Below are positions 735-16,222 of a stretch of DNA of 20,241 nucleotides, in pieces (positions within the stretch are counted from its first letter, which is position 1; every line of letters begins with the position of its first letter). Below the pieces are notes generated by a model that saw only the letters and a list, made by a program, of their open reading frames with translations, had not been told where the DNA came from and did no database searches. The translations under genes were made by a program, and so were the position numbers. The stretch comes from a virus (lineage: Duplodnaviria; Heunggongvirae; Uroviricota; Caudoviricetes): IMG/VR virus record IMGVR_UViG_2802429219_000017, positions 1-20,241 of that record; one strand, 5' to 3'.

Positions 735-1811
735 TCAGAGCAGTAAGTACGTTTTTTCTCTCTCATCAAGATACATTTTTGTTGTCTTCTCCGATGTGTG
801 GCCAAGTAGACGCTGAGCAAATTCTTCTCCACATGTTTCTTTGTATAATCGTCCAGCCAGGCTTCTGATCTCGTGAAAAGTTGGTGGGTTTTCACTGAAC
901 TGGATACCTGTTAATTTTCTGGCTGCAACAAATTTTTTTGTCAGGCCGTCCGGGTGAATGCTTCCGTCAGGGCTGTTTTTTCTAATCCCGGCACTGATTA
1001 GAAAATCTCCCCGGCTTACCAGGCGGCACCGTTCAACTACTGTACCAAGACGTAGACCAGCGACAGGAAGGCTGAGTGACAGGGGGATAGCAATCATCAT
1101 TCCTGTCTTAATTTGCCTGATGTGGAGACGATCATCATAAATATCACTGAACCGCATATTCGTTATGTCTTCGCGACGTTGTCCTGTTACAAGGGCTAAG
1201 TCCATAGCTAATGGGAACCATGTCGGAAGTTGATCTGCTGCCTCCCTGATGCAGTTGTATGTCTTTAGTTTCAGCCGTTCTCTTGTAACTACTATTTTCG
1301 GTGCTCTTGTTGGCGTTACTGGATTTTGAGATATACGCCCTTCAACAATGGCTTCGCGGAACATATCAGATAACACAGAACGCATTGATCCTGCCATCGT
1401 GTTTTTCCCTCCTTCAATCCACAAATCAAGAAACTCGGCAATATGGCGAGTGGTTATTTCTGTCAGTAAAATCCCTCCTAATTTTTCTTTTATTGTTTCC
1501 AGTTGATTTCCCCGAATTTTATAAGTATTTCTGGACACTTTTCTCCTTATAAGAATCGTTTTGTAACGTTCAATCCAGTCTGCCATAGTAAATGAGTCGA
1601 ACCCTTTAAGTTTTTCAATTAAGGCAGCAGGAGAGTAGTTTTTGTATATATAATGATTTGCTTCAATTGCCTGCGCGATTGCATCTCTTCTTGAAATTTT
1701 ACCTAGTGTAAATTCTTCTTTCGTCAGAGGGTTGCGCCAGTAATATGCTTTGTCCCTCCTTCGATATGTTAAGTTCCTAGGCAAATTGGGATCGTATTTT
1801 TTCCGCTGCAT
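735..1811 (-). CDS. int: Phage tyrosine integrase, lambda Int family (358 aa)
   Basis: Translation aligns by eye with lambda Int along its length (N-terminal arm-binding region NLPRNLTYRRR, C-terminal ...PTFHEIRSLAGRLY...LLGH... catalytic region). Confidence 0.9.
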   Translation of the reverse strand: MQRKKYDPNLPRNLTYRRRDKAYYWRNPLTKEEFTLGKISRRDAIAQAIEANHYIYKNYSPAALIEKLKGFDSFTMADWIERYKTILIRRKVSRNTYKIRGNQLETIKEKLGGILLTEITTRHIAEFLDLWIEGGKNTMAGSMRSVLSDMFREAIVEGRISQNPVTPTRAPKIVVTRERLKLKTYNCIREAADQLPTWFPLAMDLALVTGQRREDITNMRFSDIYDDRLHIRQIKTGMMIAIPLSLSLPVAGLRLGTVVERCRLVSRGDFLISAGIRKNSPDGSIHPDGLTKKFVAARKLTGIQFSENPPTFHEIRSLAGRLYKETCGEEFAQRLLGHTSEKTTKMYLDEREKTYLLL

Positions 1812-3706: not shown

Positions 3707-6700
3707 TTAAGCCAGATGCAGTGCTTCAAGACGACGAAGATCAAAGTCGTTTAATTCGTCGGTATAACTTTCGGTTATCGGTGCTGGCCAATTGTTTGTC
3801 TCCAGGGCTTCGTTTATCTGGCGTAGCGTCCGGCGATATTCCTGTCGACCAAGTTCCAGGAGTTCCTGCGAGGCTTCCACGACAGCCACCCAGTGATAGC
3901 CAGCATCTTTGTTGACGAAGATCCAGAAAAATTTGTCCAGGTTTGCCACATCGCAATACATTGCGGCGCTGAGGTGATAATCACGCTCAATAATTTCACG
4001 GTGCAGGCGATCTTTAAGTCGTTCCTGCCGCACATAACCGAGGCTGACTGACTTCACGTCAGCGCAAATGCTTTCGTATGGCAGCCGGATTTCGATATCA
4101 GGACGGACCCTGATTTCCAGCCCGGTTTCTTCATCAAACCCGAAATAGCTGATTTCAGATTTGCGATCCGGGTGGTTGAGTAGCCTTGCTGCATCGGTAT
4201 TGTTTTGCAGTGCCGCGTGAATATTTTTTGCCTGTTCATACATATCCGGACTGATAAACGTTTTCCCGGCGTTTTCTTCTTGCTGGCGTTTTTGCCAGTC
4301 CTCCAGTGTCACCAGTTCCGGGCGAATTTTCCGTGCGATTTCGGTTAATTGCTCTTTTGTGCCACTGATGTTGTAAGGCAAAGATTTAGCACGTTCTTTT
4401 TTTGCCAGTTCTGGGTCTACAGTTTCAATTTGATCCAGAAGCTGCTCCCGTGCTCCACTGGTTTTCAACAGAGGAGGGAGGCTTGCGTTGTATTCTTTAA
4501 TACAGGCTTTCATTGCTGATGCTGTATGTTTTTCCCCCTCAGGAATACGCCGAAATTCCACCGGAAGCGAACCGTAAAGGATGCCTGTTTCTTCGGCCCC
4601 AGCACTTACAGACAGTGGCTGTATAAGAGTGCTGTTGTAGCTTTCGATCCACTCTTTCATCTGCTCTGGTGTCATCAGTGCTGGCAGACTGGCATTGTGT
4701 TTTTTAATGATGGCGATCAGTTCGTTAGAAGTAGTAACCACATATTCAGGAACCGGTACCGGAATGGCATATTCATCAGCGAATTTATCCGTTTCCAGAA
4801 CATAGCTGTGAATGATCCGCCCACGCAGCAGTGCATCACTTTCCTCGTTCGGAATAGTTCCGGCAATGTGCCGCCCGTGGTAATACATCAGGCTGATACG
4901 GGCATCCTTCAGCATCGTGCTGCTTATTCCGTTGGCGGAGTGATAAACCTCGTTCGGGAGGTTTTCATAGCGGCCTGGCTCGAAATATGACGGCCACATG
5001 ATTTCAGTTGCTACAGGAGCTGACGCTTCACCAGTTTCATCACTGCAATCACGATGCGGATCGCTGCCAGCATTCTCATTGTGCGGATGTTCAGCGCCTT
5101 CCATTTCCACCGGATCTTTTTCCTTAGCTTCAACCTGATTCTCTTCATCGAATGTTTCCTGGTATGTTGCGTCGCCCATTACCGCACCACAGTCAGGGCA
5201 GTTATCCCCGTCAGTCTGACCGCAGGCGGCGCAGACTTTTTCCGGTTCCTGTTGCGCTTCTGGTTCATTTTGTCGCGCATTTTGGCCGTTTTGTTCCGAT
5301 TTTCGGTCGTTCTGTTCCGTTTTTGGCTGATGCTGGTACACAGAATCGCGGGTCTGGATCCCCTTAACCCATTTCGGATCATTCGGGTCGCTAATCCCTT
5401 CAACAAATTCTCCGCGATAGGCAGCCAGTAATTTGTCTGCATCGACAGGATTTTTGGGCGGAATGTTTTTCCGGGCTTCATGGAGTTCTGCCCGCAGTTC
5501 TTGATATTTCGCATCAACAGAATTTACCTGTGACTGAGCATCCAGCGGCTGCGTGTCCTGATGATGTTCAGTTGCGTCCGGTTCCATTGTTTCAGCCTCT
5601 CCCTGTTCATCTGCCGTTGTTCCAGATGGTTGCGGTTTTTCTTCATCATCCTGTTTTCCTTCTTCTGTTACACGCTGCGGCATCGGGGCAGAGGAACGAC
5701 CGCAGGCAATATCCACGATTTCCGGATCAGGGTTGGCATGATCAGTTTCAGTCAGTACTTTGTTCAGATATTCAGTGACGTGCGCGGGGGTGACCTCGAT
5801 CCCAATTGGTGCTTCTTTCACGGACGCAACCACGATGGCGCGGGAATAATCCAGCCCGCCAGGCATGGTGATGAATTTGTCGCGGAAAACAGAAAAGGGC
5901 GGTTTATTTTCAGCGATAATTTCCTCAATGCGTTTAGCGTGTGCCGGATGAAGGTTATAAATGTCCACGTCCATTGAACGGGCCAGTACGCCAGTGGCTA
6001 CGTCGCGCGCCAGCGACGTCAGATCGTGGACGAAACCTTCGCCGCGATCGGTGAGGTTCCCGCCGCCAGCATTAGCACCGGAAGCCATGCGCGTGATGCG
6101 TGAAACACGATTCCCTTTTCGCCATTCTTTTGTCAGAAGACCGCGATCAATGTGTTCGGTATCCAGCCAGGCTGAAATGAAATTCTTAAATTCATAGGGC
6201 TGATGTTTTTTCGTGATAGAGAAAACCCCCTTAATTGCATCAGTCAGGCGGAGCAGGGCGGCATTATCCAGAGTTGTCGGTTCTGCCATGCCGCGTATGG
6301 CCAACAGCAGATTCTGGACATAGCTGTTTTCCTGATCCATCTCAAGAGCAGTAATGTGTTCGCGTTGTTCTCGGGTGGCATGATGCAGGTATTTCCGATC
6401 CCCGGCCGCATAGGTAAAAATGTGCAGAAGACGCTGTGTGAACCGCAAAGTGGCTACAGAGACTTCGCAATCCTGGCAATCCTCGTGGGCGTCTGCCTGC
6501 GTGTTTTCTTCCTGGCCTCCCGCCAGTTCTTTGGTTTCTTGAGCATTATCCTGGTGGTGAACGTCGTCTGGCGCTGCTCCCGGTTTTAGTTCCCAGGTCA
6601 TGGAGTCTTTGCTGAGTTGATAGCGTTCACTCCAGGTAAAATCGATCTCACCTTCAGGGGGCAGGTCATTAACGACAGGAAAATTCGTGGCAACAGCTTT

Positions 6701-13211: not shown

Positions 13212-13812
13212 TTACCAGGCACTGCGAATGGCGGCAGAAAATGCAACCCCTGGCGAATGGTGTTCTGATGATTATGGGTTAATTGCTGATGCCGGACTGA
13301 ACGCAAATTACTACATAGCATCATGCTCAGGACCAGATAATCGCGCCAATAAGCGATTCATAGCAGCAGCCAATCCGGCTACCGTGCTGGCACTGCTGGA
13401 TGAACGGGAAGCCCAAAGCAAACGCATTGCAGAGCTGGAGACTAATCTTGCTGCACTTGCGGCGGAGAATGCGGGGCTGAAGGTGATGTGTGAGGACCGC
13501 CGCAGGTTCATCATGAAAGGGGTGCAACTGGGGTATATCAAGGTGCCAAAAGCGGAAACAGATCCGGACCTTGAGACAATTCGTATTGCTATATCACCAC
13601 AAAAGCCCATTCCAGCCACCGATGCTTTTTTGGCTGAAGTAAGGGCGCAGGGGGTAGAGATGATGCGCGAACACCCATCAATCAAACTTTGCTCTTTGAC
13701 GCACATATGTGATGAGTTAGCCGCCCAGCTTCGAAAAGGAGAGCTGCATATGATGTTTGACGCTGGCATTCACATCAAAGGAGAAGAGCATGGAAATAAA
13801 ACCAGAAGATGA
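13198..13812 (+). CDS. Ead/Ea22-like protein (N-terminal Ea22-like domain, variable C-terminus)
   Basis: AGGAGG SD 6 nt before GTG at 13198. ...[47 protein letters not shown]... resembles the Ea22-like N-terminal domain of lambdoid prophage proteins. Confidence 0.55.
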
Positions 13813-14149
13813 GTTAAGTAATATTGTTTTATTTCCGGTAAAAGAGGATGACCCACGTAATCAGGTTAATTTTCTTTATGAACCATCGGAAAGACCATAT
13901 TGCCATCATGCCTCTGTCCGGGTTGATGAAAAAGAGCGTCAGGTCCGCTGTAAAATCTGCGGTGCAGTTGTGGAGCCATTTGACTGGATGCTCTCTGTTG
14001 CGAAAAGAGAAACCAGGCTGGCAGATGATGTAAAACTATTGCGCCAGGAGGAACAGGAAAGGCGAAAAAATATAGAAAAGCTAATTCAGATTGAGCGTAA
14101 CGCGAAAGCGCGGATACGCAGAGCGACAAAATCCAGAACTGAATATTAA
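13790..14149 (+). CDS. Hypothetical zinc-ribbon plus coiled-coil protein (119 aa)
   Basis: AAAGGAGAAG SD. CHH...CKICG motif followed by a basic/acidic coiled-coil tail. Confidence 0.55.
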   Translation: MEIKPEDELSNIVLFPVKEDDPRNQVNFLYEPSERPYCHHASVRVDEKERQVRCKICGAVVEPFDWMLSVAKRETRLADDVKLLRQEEQERRKNIEKLIQIERNAKARIRRATKSRTEY

Positions 14150-14407: not shown

Positions 14408-14719
14408 TGTCGGGATGCCGCCCGAAAGGGCGGTAATAAAAATGGCTGAACTAATCGGAGAACAAAACGATGAAAAACCGTAAGGCAAAGATGCTGATAG
14501 CAAAGCCCGGGCAGCGTATCCGTATCTCAAATCGGCTTGTTATTTACTATAGATATCTGGGTTTTAGGGGGTGTTCCTCTATTCGTTTTTACGGTGTCTG
14601 GCGGAGCAGAAGCGCGGCGCAAAACCGCTGGAAAAACCACTTGCGCACTAAAGGAGAGTGAGGTGCCTACACTATTCAGGAAGCTACACAATAAAATTAA
14701 CCCACATAAGGAAACAGAT

Positions 14720-15298
14720 ATGGCAACTATTACCAGAGAAAGCGCAGAGATTAAATCATTCATCACTGGCTTTCTGAGCGATGCGGCGCACGATAACCAA
14801 TCTTCAAACAGTCTGCTTGCTAATGTGTTTCGTATCGCGCTGGCATCGCTGGAAGCAAAACCAATAGGTGCATTCCACATTGCAGAACAGCAAGTTGACG
14901 GTACAAGTGACTACCTCAAGGATGGAGAATGGCCTATTGATAATGGAATTATTGAGGTCTACGCCGCTCCCCCCGTTCCCGTAATACAGGCTGATGTCGC
15001 GCAAGCAATTGAAAATCTCAAGCAGAAGTTAGTGGAATGCAATCGCTATAACTACTGCGCAGATGCAGTTAAAGGTGTTGAGGATGCCTGCCGCGCAGCC
15101 ATGCTTCAGGGGAAAGACGATGGTATCCTCACCAATGAGGATACCAAAGGGGACGTTCAGGTACGGGAATTAACAATGCTGATTAAACAACTGGTTAGCC
15201 AATTGAGGAAAGCGAAGCCGGACTGCAAATTACCGGAGAAGGCGATGGTCTACCTGAAGCGAAACGGACTGATAAGTGCAGAGGATGTTTTGCGATGA
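14720..15298 (+). CDS. Hypothetical protein (192 aa)
   Basis: AAGGAAA SD before the ATG at 14720; the track ORF extends to 14537 but that N-terminal part looks non-coding. Soluble, acidic. Confidence 0.6.
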   Translation: MATITRESAEIKSFITGFLSDAAHDNQSSNSLLANVFRIALASLEAKPIGAFHIAEQQVDGTSDYLKDGEWPIDNGIIEVYAAPPVPVIQADVAQAIENLKQKLVECNRYNYCADAVKGVEDACRAAMLQGKDDGILTNEDTKGDVQVRELTMLIKQLVSQLRKAKPDCKLPEKAMVYLKRNGLISAEDVLR

Positions 15299-15378
15299 CC
15301 TGGCCTGAAGCATTCACAACGGTAGGAATTGCAATGGCGGTGGCGCTGGTGGTGTATTCGATTTGCCGCTGGGGATAA
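15295..15378 (+). CDS. Candidate 27-aa hydrophobic peptide, start overlapping the preceding stop
   Basis: Hand-translated: MTWPEAFTTVGIAMAVALVVYSICRWG; ATGA overlap with the 14720-15298 stop. One predicted transmembrane helix. Confidence 0.3.
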   Translation: MTWPEAFTTVGIAMAVALVVYSICRWG

Positions 15379-15588
15379 AAACGATTTGCGGGAAAAGGAT
15401 AGTTAAGTAGAATTGCTGCGGGTGCTTGAGGCTATCTGTCTCAGGCATGAACACCAAAGGCAGATAGAGAAAAGCCCCAGTTAACATTACGCGTCCTGCA
15501 AGACGCTTAACATTAATCTGAGGCCAATTTCATGCTAGACACATGTAGGTTAGCCTCTTACGCGCCGAAAGGCAAGGAGAAGCAGGCT

Positions 15589-15744
15589 ATGAAGCAGCAA
15601 AAGGCGATGTTAATCGCCCTGATCGTCATCTGTTTAACCGTCATAGTGACGGCACTGGTAACGAGGAAAGACCTCTGCGAGGTACGAATCCGAACCGGGC
15701 AGACGGAGGTCGCTGTCTTCACAGCTTACGAACCTGAGGAGTAA
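15589..15744 (+). CDS. hok: Hok/Gef-family type I toxin (HokD/RelF-like, 51 aa)
   Basis: MKQQKAMLIALIVICLTVIVTALVTRKDLCEVRIRTGQTEVAVFTAYEPEE matches my memory of the Hok family. AAGGAGAAG SD. An in-frame upstream ATG at 15532 gives a mok-like leader. Confidence 0.85.
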   Translation: MKQQKAMLIALIVICLTVIVTALVTRKDLCEVRIRTGQTEVAVFTAYEPEE

Positions 15745-15810
15745 GAGACCAGGCGGGGTAAACCCCCGCCACCTCTGATGTGTCAGGCATCCTCAATGCA
15801 CCCACACTTA

Positions 15811-15836
15811 ACCCGCTTCGGCGGGTTTTTGTTTTT
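15811..15836 (+). terminator. Rho-independent terminator of the hok transcript
   Basis: ACCCGC-TTCG-GCGGGT followed by TTTTGTTTTT. An upstream hairpin GGCGGGG-TAAA-CCCCCGCC (15752-15770) resembles a hok fold-back element. Confidence 0.7.
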
Positions 15837-15961
15837 ATTTTCAACGCGTTTGAAGTTTTGGATAGTGCCGGAATAGAATCAAAAATACTTAAGTAGCGCG
15901 CAGGGAGAAGAGGGATGGACCCCGAACAGGGGAGTGCTATTTATCTGGAAGGATTCTGTTG

Positions 15962-16222
15962 ATGAAAATCGAAGAATTGCGTGAAATTTTTAGTGAAAAT
16001 GGCCTCTATACTGTGCGCGTTGAGAATGGCGCTATTGTCAGTCACTGCCGTATTAAATGTTTACAGTCTCAACAAAGGAAGAGTGGAGCTGCGTTATTTT
16101 ATTTTTGTAATGGACTTCTGACGGACGGTTTTATTTTGCGTGAGGACGAATTTGTCACATCATTAGGGGTTTTGAAAGAGATTGGTTTTAAGGCTGGTTT
16201 TTCTGCTTTTGCTGAAGAATAA
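15962..16222 (+). CDS. Hypothetical small protein (86 aa)
   Basis: GGAAGGA SD 8 nt before the ATG at 15962. Confidence 0.5.
   Translation: MKIEELREIFSENGLYTVRVENGAIVSHCRIKCLQSQQRKSGAALFYFCNGLLTDGFILREDEFVTSLGVLKEIGFKAGFSAFAEE

Follow-up and report, generated by a model that had tools for sequence, protein, structure and literature searches.

A conserved 27-codon reading frame, probably a membrane-peptide gene, in the accessory early-gene arrays of lambdoid coliphages

The window analysed here is the whole 20,241-nt stretch of the IMG/VR virus record IMGVR_UViG_2802429219_000017 (positions 1 to 20,241), a Rac-like lambdoid prophage, and the subject is a 27-codon open reading frame (ORF; plus strand, nt 15295-15378; product MTWPEAFTTVGIAMAVALVVYSICRWG) situated between a 192-aa gene and a hok/sok locus. 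Comparison with related loci makes it very probable that this ORF is a real, autonomous gene for a membrane peptide, carried as a mosaic module of the accessory 'ea' early-gene arrays (Ea22/EaA/DUF551-type) of lambdoid coliphages. The module is also present in at least one phage of the virulent, rV5-like type.

The 192-aa ORF (plus strand, nt 14720-15298) starts with an ATG at nt 14720, with AAGGA just before it, and its TGA stop codon (nt 15296-15298) shares letters with the ATG of the small ORF at nt 15295, which extends to a TAA at nt 15376-15378. The ATGA stop/start overlap between the two (nt 15295-15298, plus strand), reported in the original prediction made from this sequence, was confirmed, and a Shine-Dalgarno (SD)-like GAGG core (nt 15281-15284, plus strand) lies 10 nt 5' of the peptide ATG, within the last codons of the 192-aa gene. 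Homologous loci were gathered by four mutually independent routes, via the hok leader, the hok promoter, the ORF core and the upstream C-terminal module, the last supplemented by a degenerate ORF pattern. Loci were retrieved by exact DNA patterns; frequencies among viral contigs are indicative and refer to the matches listed, and the genome counts obtained by BLAST are more reliable. The overlap with the preceding gene was kept in 152 of the 155 loci listed, whatever the upstream gene, which supports the coupling as a real feature, and exactly 27 residues were encoded in 145 of them. The stop codon of the small ORF was TAA in 137 loci, TGA in 17 and TAG in one, and the C-terminal RWG was retained in the listed contexts where the stop codon differs.

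A short hydrophobic ORF alone is weak evidence for a gene, and this one is placed beyond chance because the comparative data show coding conservation. Within the common allele, 60 distinct mutations were found, comprising 27 synonymous and 32 non-synonymous changes and one stop (expected synonymous fraction 0.28, P = 0.003), and 32 of the 60 fell at codon position 3 (P = 0.001). The ratio of non-synonymous to synonymous change (omega) was ~0.47, against 0.48 for the hok ORF in the same loci, and neither of the other two frames showed a synonymous excess. All five alleles compared retain the 27 codons despite differences at 10-29 of the 84 nt (12-35%). Besides the window sequence, they comprise those of 933W (MTWPEAFANVGTVMAVVLVVYSICRWR), 'A2' (MNWPEAFAITGVAMAIAFLVYVICRWG, in 45 viral contigs), BP-4795 (MNWPEAFTAVGVAIAVAFILYSLFRWG) and the virulent rV5-like phage Av-05 (MTWPEAFTTVGVVMAVAFAVYSVCRWG). 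The proportions of synonymous (pS) and non-synonymous (pN) differences between alleles were calculated by the Nei-Gojobori method (NG86), and were 0.68 and 0.20 for the window against A2 (omega 0.13) and 0.55 and 0.08 for the window against Av-05 (omega 0.09). Over all pairs the ranges were 0.18-0.79 for pS, 0.08-0.25 for pN and 0.09-0.57 for omega, while the same alleles read in the other two frames gave pN/pS values of 0.4-4.5. Conservation with synonymous-site constraint, which the original prediction had proposed as a check, was found, the 27-codon ORF being in frame in most relatives. The pattern indicates a genuine gene under purifying selection as a 27-residue peptide, conserved as coding sequence in this frame only, and not the chance ORF that had been allowed for.

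The rival view, that the 84 nt are non-functional and represent either a conserved 'linker' at which phage modules recombine or an ORF that arose by chance and was retained through recent spread, has several observations on its side. The block is flanked by variable modules on both sides, a junction motif (AGGAGGTGAATCAATGA) is reused in the arrays, conservation of the 3' third extends to the nucleotides, a small share of the copies is broken and the RefSeq annotation ignores the ORF. It nevertheless appears very unlikely, since a frame-specific synonymous excess persists at up to 35% DNA divergence with no such signal in the other frames, the 27 codons, start and stop are exactly preserved, and the C-terminal RWG persists whether the stop codon is TAA or TGA.

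Several points do weigh against the reading as a membrane-peptide gene. Omega for the window against 933W is only ~0.56, and exact-match DNA sampling favours close relatives. The last 27 nt of the ORF are conserved even at synonymous sites (11 of the 60 mutations fall there), which may reflect some nucleotide-level constraint or hitch-hiking with the adjacent promoter. Some 5% of the copies are broken, by a 1-nt deletion after the ATGA (five loci), by a stop at codon 3 (two loci, and phage POCJ13) or, in one more case, by truncation, and the gene is therefore dispensable in some prophages; hok was intact in 85 of 85 related loci. The peptide string is not mentioned in the searchable literature or in the supplements of a ribosome-profiling study of small genes in enterohaemorrhagic Escherichia coli, and the topology and mode of action proposed further on are inferred only.

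Two other readings of the same nucleotides were considered and rejected. A programmed -1 frameshift fusion with the upstream gene would need a slippery heptamer, and none was present in any upstream context. Antisense coding by a 57-aa minus-strand ORF (nt 15314-15487) is contradicted by the third-position excess, as the wobble positions of that ORF are the second positions of the plus strand. In Shigella phage POCJ13 (L420, nt 1506-1634, minus strand), the homologue of the peptide gene has a TAG at codon 3 and is covered in antisense by the annotated gp73, which was probably called in error across a pseudogenised copy.

The ORF was detected by BLAST in 1371 of 5426 complete E. coli genomes (~25%), at 1897 places, and in 88 phage records, with 933W, VT2-Sakai (Sp5) and BP-4795 among the carriers. 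A protein-database search, for which the 27-mer was padded to 40 aa, returned only short proteins. The peptide is held by 70 protein clusters, all of 25-59 aa, and the named clusters are labelled 'hypothetical', 'bacteriophage protein' or 'DUF551 domain-containing protein, partial'. Because the database matches are all this short, the ORF cannot be a piece of some longer protein family. An apparent cluster link to 121-aa DUF551 proteins was discarded, as those proteins lack the peptide and the link is due to partial or alternative-start calls (e.g. GGES-MTWPEAF). The small ORF is unannotated by RefSeq/PGAP in all five E. coli loci inspected and in the GenBank records of 933W, BP-4795 and Av-05, and no mention of it was found in the literature searched on hokW and on exo-xis/Ea22/DUF551. 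A gene carried by about a quarter of complete E. coli genomes and by medically important Shiga toxin (Stx) phages is thus absent from the inspected RefSeq annotations.

Among the database entries, in-frame hexanucleotide repeat expansions were seen inside the transmembrane segment (AMAMAMAMAV, AVAVAVAL), giving peptides of 29-35 aa (clusters P0188, P0190, P0192, P0194 and P0197). The Av-05 copy (KM190144, L421, nt ~1501-1584) is an unannotated gene in a virulent, 121-kb phage of the Vequintavirinae, where it is ATGA-coupled to a gene bearing the GWNACRAAML motif that is common with the 192-aa family; accessory modules therefore cross the boundary between temperate and virulent phages.

The single transmembrane character given to the peptide in the original prediction is upheld as a prediction. 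The best 17-residue segment has a mean Kyte-Doolittle hydropathy of 2.11, and values of at least 2.0 were reached by only 3 of the 110 ATG-initiated ORFs of 20-40 aa in the six frames of the window. Residues conserved in at least four of the five alleles, and mostly in all of them, are W3-P-E-A-F7, G11, A13, A15, A17, Y21, R25, W26 and G27. The hydropathy and the conserved aromatic and charged flanks together predict one transmembrane helix. The peptide had no match in Pfam, PHROGs or PADLOC, and against NCBIfam it returned only KdpF (TIGR02115) with 14.7 bits for a cut-off of 26.85, a similarity of composition only. None of Pfam, PHROGs and NCBIfam thus contains the gene.

Small single-pass membrane proteins of up to 50 aa include KdpF, AcrZ, MgtS and CydX as well as prophage-encoded ones, and often regulate transporters, sensors or membrane integrity. 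The peptide resembles them in its length, single hydrophobic helix, aromatic flanks and C-terminal Arg, in having been overlooked by annotation pipelines, and in being under purifying selection despite its tiny size. It differs from those described in having no sequence relationship to any of them, in being phage-borne, and in being ATGA-coupled to hypervariable accessory genes. With the type I toxins (Hok/Gef, TisB, Ibs, ShoB, Ldr) it shares a small, hydrophobic, helical nature, and it adjoins hok/sok in a slot rich in toxin-antitoxin (TA) systems. Unlike them, however, it has no HOK_GEF match and no evident promoter or long structured 5' untranslated region of its own, being instead, in all probability, the distal, translationally coupled cistron of an operon. 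No Rfam antisense-RNA or leader family was found over nt 15295-15378, an antisense RNA of an undescribed kind being conceivable, and the ATGA overlap with the preceding cistron speaks for expression from the operon. The most fitting place for the peptide is among the small membrane proteins, as a new and unnamed member, its resemblance to type I toxins being superficial.

The genes in front of the peptide gene are highly variable. It is preceded by at least three unrelated gene families, with at least four unrelated C-termini: genes ending in RNGLISVEDILR (the window type), genes ending in WMPLPEPPQEVNQ (DUF551), the 933W gene L0139 ending in NDLKNIEQKVNQ (a zinc-ribbon/coiled-coil protein related to the window ORF at nt 13757-14149), genes ending in PWERGGHEEGDK, and an 87-aa 'eaa' protein. 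Every upstream context brings its own SD sequence (e.g. CAGGAGGTGAATCAATGA), which in the DUF551 and L0139 contexts is AGGAGGT, 7 nt 5' of the peptide start. The converse comparison used 118 listed loci picked by a 17-mer inside the C-terminal module of the 192-aa protein, ~85 of which continue into the peptide ORF. In the remaining 33 it is absent, 28 having a complete module that passes into unrelated sequence and five a truncated or rearranged module. The original prediction had held that loss, or a shifted frame, in relatives keeping the 192-aa gene would speak against the small ORF, and the ORF withstands this check, being conserved and in frame in most relatives.

The downstream border is equally sharp. 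Homology with other phages stops exactly at the start region of the peptide gene and at its stop codon, and directly after the stop codon at least eight different continuations were found. They include terminator hairpins of three kinds, a further small ORF and the hok promoter; BP-4795 (ORF4-ORF3-xis-int) and Av-05 continue into other genes. These boundaries mark the peptide gene as what appears to be an autonomous mosaic module and not a dedicated partner of the 192-aa gene. Two observations concern the junctions themselves. In 933W (L003, nt 2034-2110), the residues annotated as the start of L0139 (VDNSWCVVETVTLDAATRTAAGGEL-MENEGD...) stem from a DUF551 3' end read out of frame, and the junction AGGAGGTGAAT-N-AATG, which combines SD and stop/start, recurs between different genes of these arrays in the manner of a recombination linker.

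The 192-aa protein, which had been described as unrecognised, is no orphan. It has 4490 database homologues, many of which end in DUF551 instead, belongs to phrog_660, and is identical to WP_105269213.1 of unclassified Escherichia. A longer, TTG-initiated frame exists from nt 14537; homologues nevertheless begin with MTTITRE or MATITRE. The N-terminal two-thirds recurs in proteins with a DUF551 C-terminus, and the last ~50 residues (QVRELTMLIKQLVSQLRKAKPDCKLPEKAMVYLKRNGLISAEDVLR) form a separate conserved module, the alignment of which (A2) shows conserved blocks with swapped segments between them. PHROG matches fall separately on the N-terminal, middle and C-terminal modules and are to families of unknown function only. 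No Pfam family was matched at E <= 0.01, so the protein lies below the Ead_Ea22 (PF13935) and DUF551 (PF04448) models, and there was no NCBIfam or PADLOC match. An AlphaFold2 model built on a 27-sequence alignment was helical with flexible linkers and of low confidence (predicted local distance difference test (pLDDT) score 55, predicted template modelling (pTM) score 0.34). Published Ea22-type variants have a common N-terminus, a helical middle and swappable C-terminal domains that include DUF551 (PMC10834534). The 192-aa protein resembles such Ea22/Ead-like mosaic proteins of the lambdoid exo-xis and nin regions in being modular and in sharing modules with DUF551-bearing proteins, and differs from them in that its C-terminal module is another unit of ~50 aa and the Ead_Ea22 and DUF551 Pfam models are not reached. 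Judged from these alignments, the product is an Ea22-like accessory early protein of mosaic build, and the gene a single recombinant within a huge family whose modules are interchangeable.

The place of the pair relative to the TA genes of this region was also reassessed. In the Qin prophage of E. coli K-12, relE and relB are directly upstream of hokD, as the original prediction had stated, and the 192-aa gene and peptide were thought to occupy the relBE slot. In E. coli AST19 (L311, nt 3712-4274), a convergent pair encoding a ParD antitoxin and a RelE-ParE toxin directly follows the peptide gene, at the position where the window has hok/sok. The variable slot for TA cargo therefore lies beyond the small gene, from its stop codon onwards, and is filled by relBE-hokD in Qin, by the ParDE-like pair in AST19 and by hok/sok in the window; the AST19 pair supports a TA cargo hot spot at this site. 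The 192-aa and peptide genes are the tail of the accessory early-gene array and not cargo that has replaced relBE.

This arrangement bears directly on the proposal that the 192-aa protein and the peptide are a two-gene TA or exclusion module that replaces relBE upstream of hok. The proposal would account for an ATGA overlap that is real and conserved, for a peptide as small and hydrophobic as membrane toxins are, and for a neighbourhood that is a TA hot spot in the window, AST19 and Qin alike. It is extremely unlikely all the same. The peptide follows several unrelated genes, about a quarter of the listed genes with the same C-terminal module have no peptide ORF, the 192-aa gene is one recombinant among interchangeable modules, the variable cargo begins after the peptide and not before the 192-aa gene, and neither protein matches a TA or defence model in Pfam, PHROGs, NCBIfam or PADLOC. 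The model of a TA pair is largely refuted because co-occurrence is lacking, and since the cargo slot starts after the peptide gene there is no ground for listing the pair among candidate TA systems.

The hok/sok locus that follows in the window is complete. The hok mRNA leader with its sok antisense region (nt 15420-15594, plus strand) is a full-length match to the Rfam model RF01794 (117 bits, E = 1.7e-27), and mok (nt 15532-15744) with the nested hok (nt 15590-15744), both on the plus strand, matches Pfam HOK_GEF (E = 3e-23) and the MokW-like phrog_251. A putative hok promoter (nt 15386-15413, plus strand) begins 7 nt past the peptide stop codon, with the -35 element TTGCGG at nt 15386-15391, a 16-nt spacer and the -10 element TAGAAT at nt 15408-15413. 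It is placed there by its position just 5' of the start of the Rfam match (nt 15420) and by its invariance in alignment A1; a generic promoter scan did not report it. A terminator-like hairpin with a T-run (nt 15810-15837, plus strand) follows downstream of hok. In having a full leader, mok and hok, the window locus is like hokW-sokW and unlike Qin, where hokD is only 71 nt downstream of relE and there is no room for a leader of this length.

The peptide gene and hok are frequent neighbours, and the closeness of the two would fit a hok/sok accessory, which might be a co-toxin, might modulate Hok, or might through its translation insulate or tune the hok promoter. In 1088 of the 1371 carrier genomes a copy abuts the hok leader, and in 933W the homology with the window runs from exactly the peptide ATGA through hokW, at a different genome location. 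In other prophages the corresponding place in front of hok is taken by small hydrophobic ORFs of unrelated sequence (B/B' and D types). An accessory role is nonetheless distinctly unlikely. At least 283 carrier genomes (at least 21%) have only copies without an adjoining hok, and 44 of the 136 listed ORF-core loci have no hok within 420 nt, with terminators or other genes there instead. In the stretch shown of BP-4795 and Av-05 no hok is adjacent to the peptide gene. Conversely, a hok leader of this type is present in 4208 genomes, of which only about a quarter have the peptide beside it. The ORF, an immediate neighbour of hok/sok in the window, ends at nt 15378, 5' of the putative -35 element, and so lies outside the hok transcript as Rfam defines it. 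In addition, hokW-sokW of Sp5/933W is a functional type I TA system when cloned alone, and aids the release of Sp5 (PMC8621323).

Small transmembrane-like ORFs just 5' of prophage hok loci do seem to recur. The B' ORF (MSDDISLAMEGALAVVAVVGVYCLVVFLMDRLGN), a second small hydrophobic ORF with a strong SD of its own, lies 34 nt past allele A2 and is followed by a hairpin and the hok promoter; it occurs at loci L314 (minus strand, nt ~423-494 and downstream), L053, L099, L108 and L231 and in ~40 other viral contigs. The related B form, of 29 aa ((M/V)LVLKCALAIAAVMAIYCLAVVLMDHLSD), was once annotated as 'membrane protein' (APK03751.1), and in HannyBb and other phages it is found by itself in front of hok; B against B' gave a pN/pS of 0.50, compared with 0.64 and 0.75 in the other frames. 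At loci L006, L016, L017 and L299 nothing is left of the B-type ORF in front of hok but its last seven codons (ATGGATCACCTTTCTGATTGA), which are fused to another gene; this recombination scar shows that hok retains a working context where no small ORF is intact. A third small hydrophobic ORF, MEK(V/I)DVLIL(I/M)FG(Y/H)INALFLGVFMAVMCIEYWR, ends 87 nt upstream of the hok leader and was found at L028, L030 (Shigella flexneri), L303 and L305 and in ~20 viral contigs. Its sequence faintly recalls that of the 27-aa peptide (G-x-x-MAV ... Y-W-R).

For the favoured reading, a peptide gene that is an independent module of the array, the following mode of action can be proposed from the sequence. The peptide would be made from early phage transcripts by termination-reinitiation coupling, and would insert into the inner membrane as a single-pass helix (approximately residues 8-24) with aromatic belts formed by W3/F7 and Y21/W26. 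The positive-inside rule would place the N-terminus (E5) outside and the C-terminus (R25) inside. The conserved small-residue face (G11xxxA15, A13xxxA17) could then pack helix to helix, either with itself or with a membrane protein of host or phage. On this reading hok/sok simply fills the variable TA cargo slot that begins right after the gene.

The ea/exo-xis-type accessory arrays are poorly understood and influence the lysis-lysogeny decision, and hence Stx production. A function shared with the Ea22-like class is conceivable, because most upstream partners are Ea22-like mosaic proteins and the ATGA coupling is near-invariant; the zinc-ribbon and Eaa upstream partners argue against a specific protein-protein fit. 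A bolder extension, that the peptide is the 'constant' membrane subunit working with hypervariable Ea22-like/DUF551 proteins, or else a new membrane-active effector (an exclusion factor or toxin), is rather unlikely. If the former were true, a co-translated peptide subunit would tether or couple lysis-lysogeny modulators to the inner membrane, and if the latter, Stx phages and one in four E. coli genomes would carry a membrane-active effector. Being at the end of an ea/exo-xis-type array, the peptide gene offers a concrete and cheap experimental target.

The genes of the Rac-like prophage in the window begin, in order, with integrase, RecT, RecE, a cI-like repressor and YdaT. These are followed by a DnaT-like O protein, P, DUF1627 and an array of small accessory genes, in which an Ead/Ea22-like gene, a zinc-ribbon protein gene and a phrog_4659 gene precede the 192-aa gene, the small ORF and hok/sok. 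DUF1367, DUF1364 and a DUF1133 Q-like antiterminator then complete the series. Between hok and DUF1367 (nt 15850-16222) there is a promoter-like site (nt 15850-15879) and an 87-aa ORF (nt 15959-16222), which belongs to phrog_340 (unknown function) and has no Pfam, NCBIfam or PADLOC match. The 312 nt 5' of the 192-aa gene (nt 14408-14719) form a gap without a convincing gene. It holds a GC hairpin (gccgcccgaaagggcgg, nt ~14418-14434) and a terminator-like hairpin with a T-run at nt 14565-14581, and some gene callers stretch the 192-aa ORF into it, yielding versions of 211 and 275 aa.

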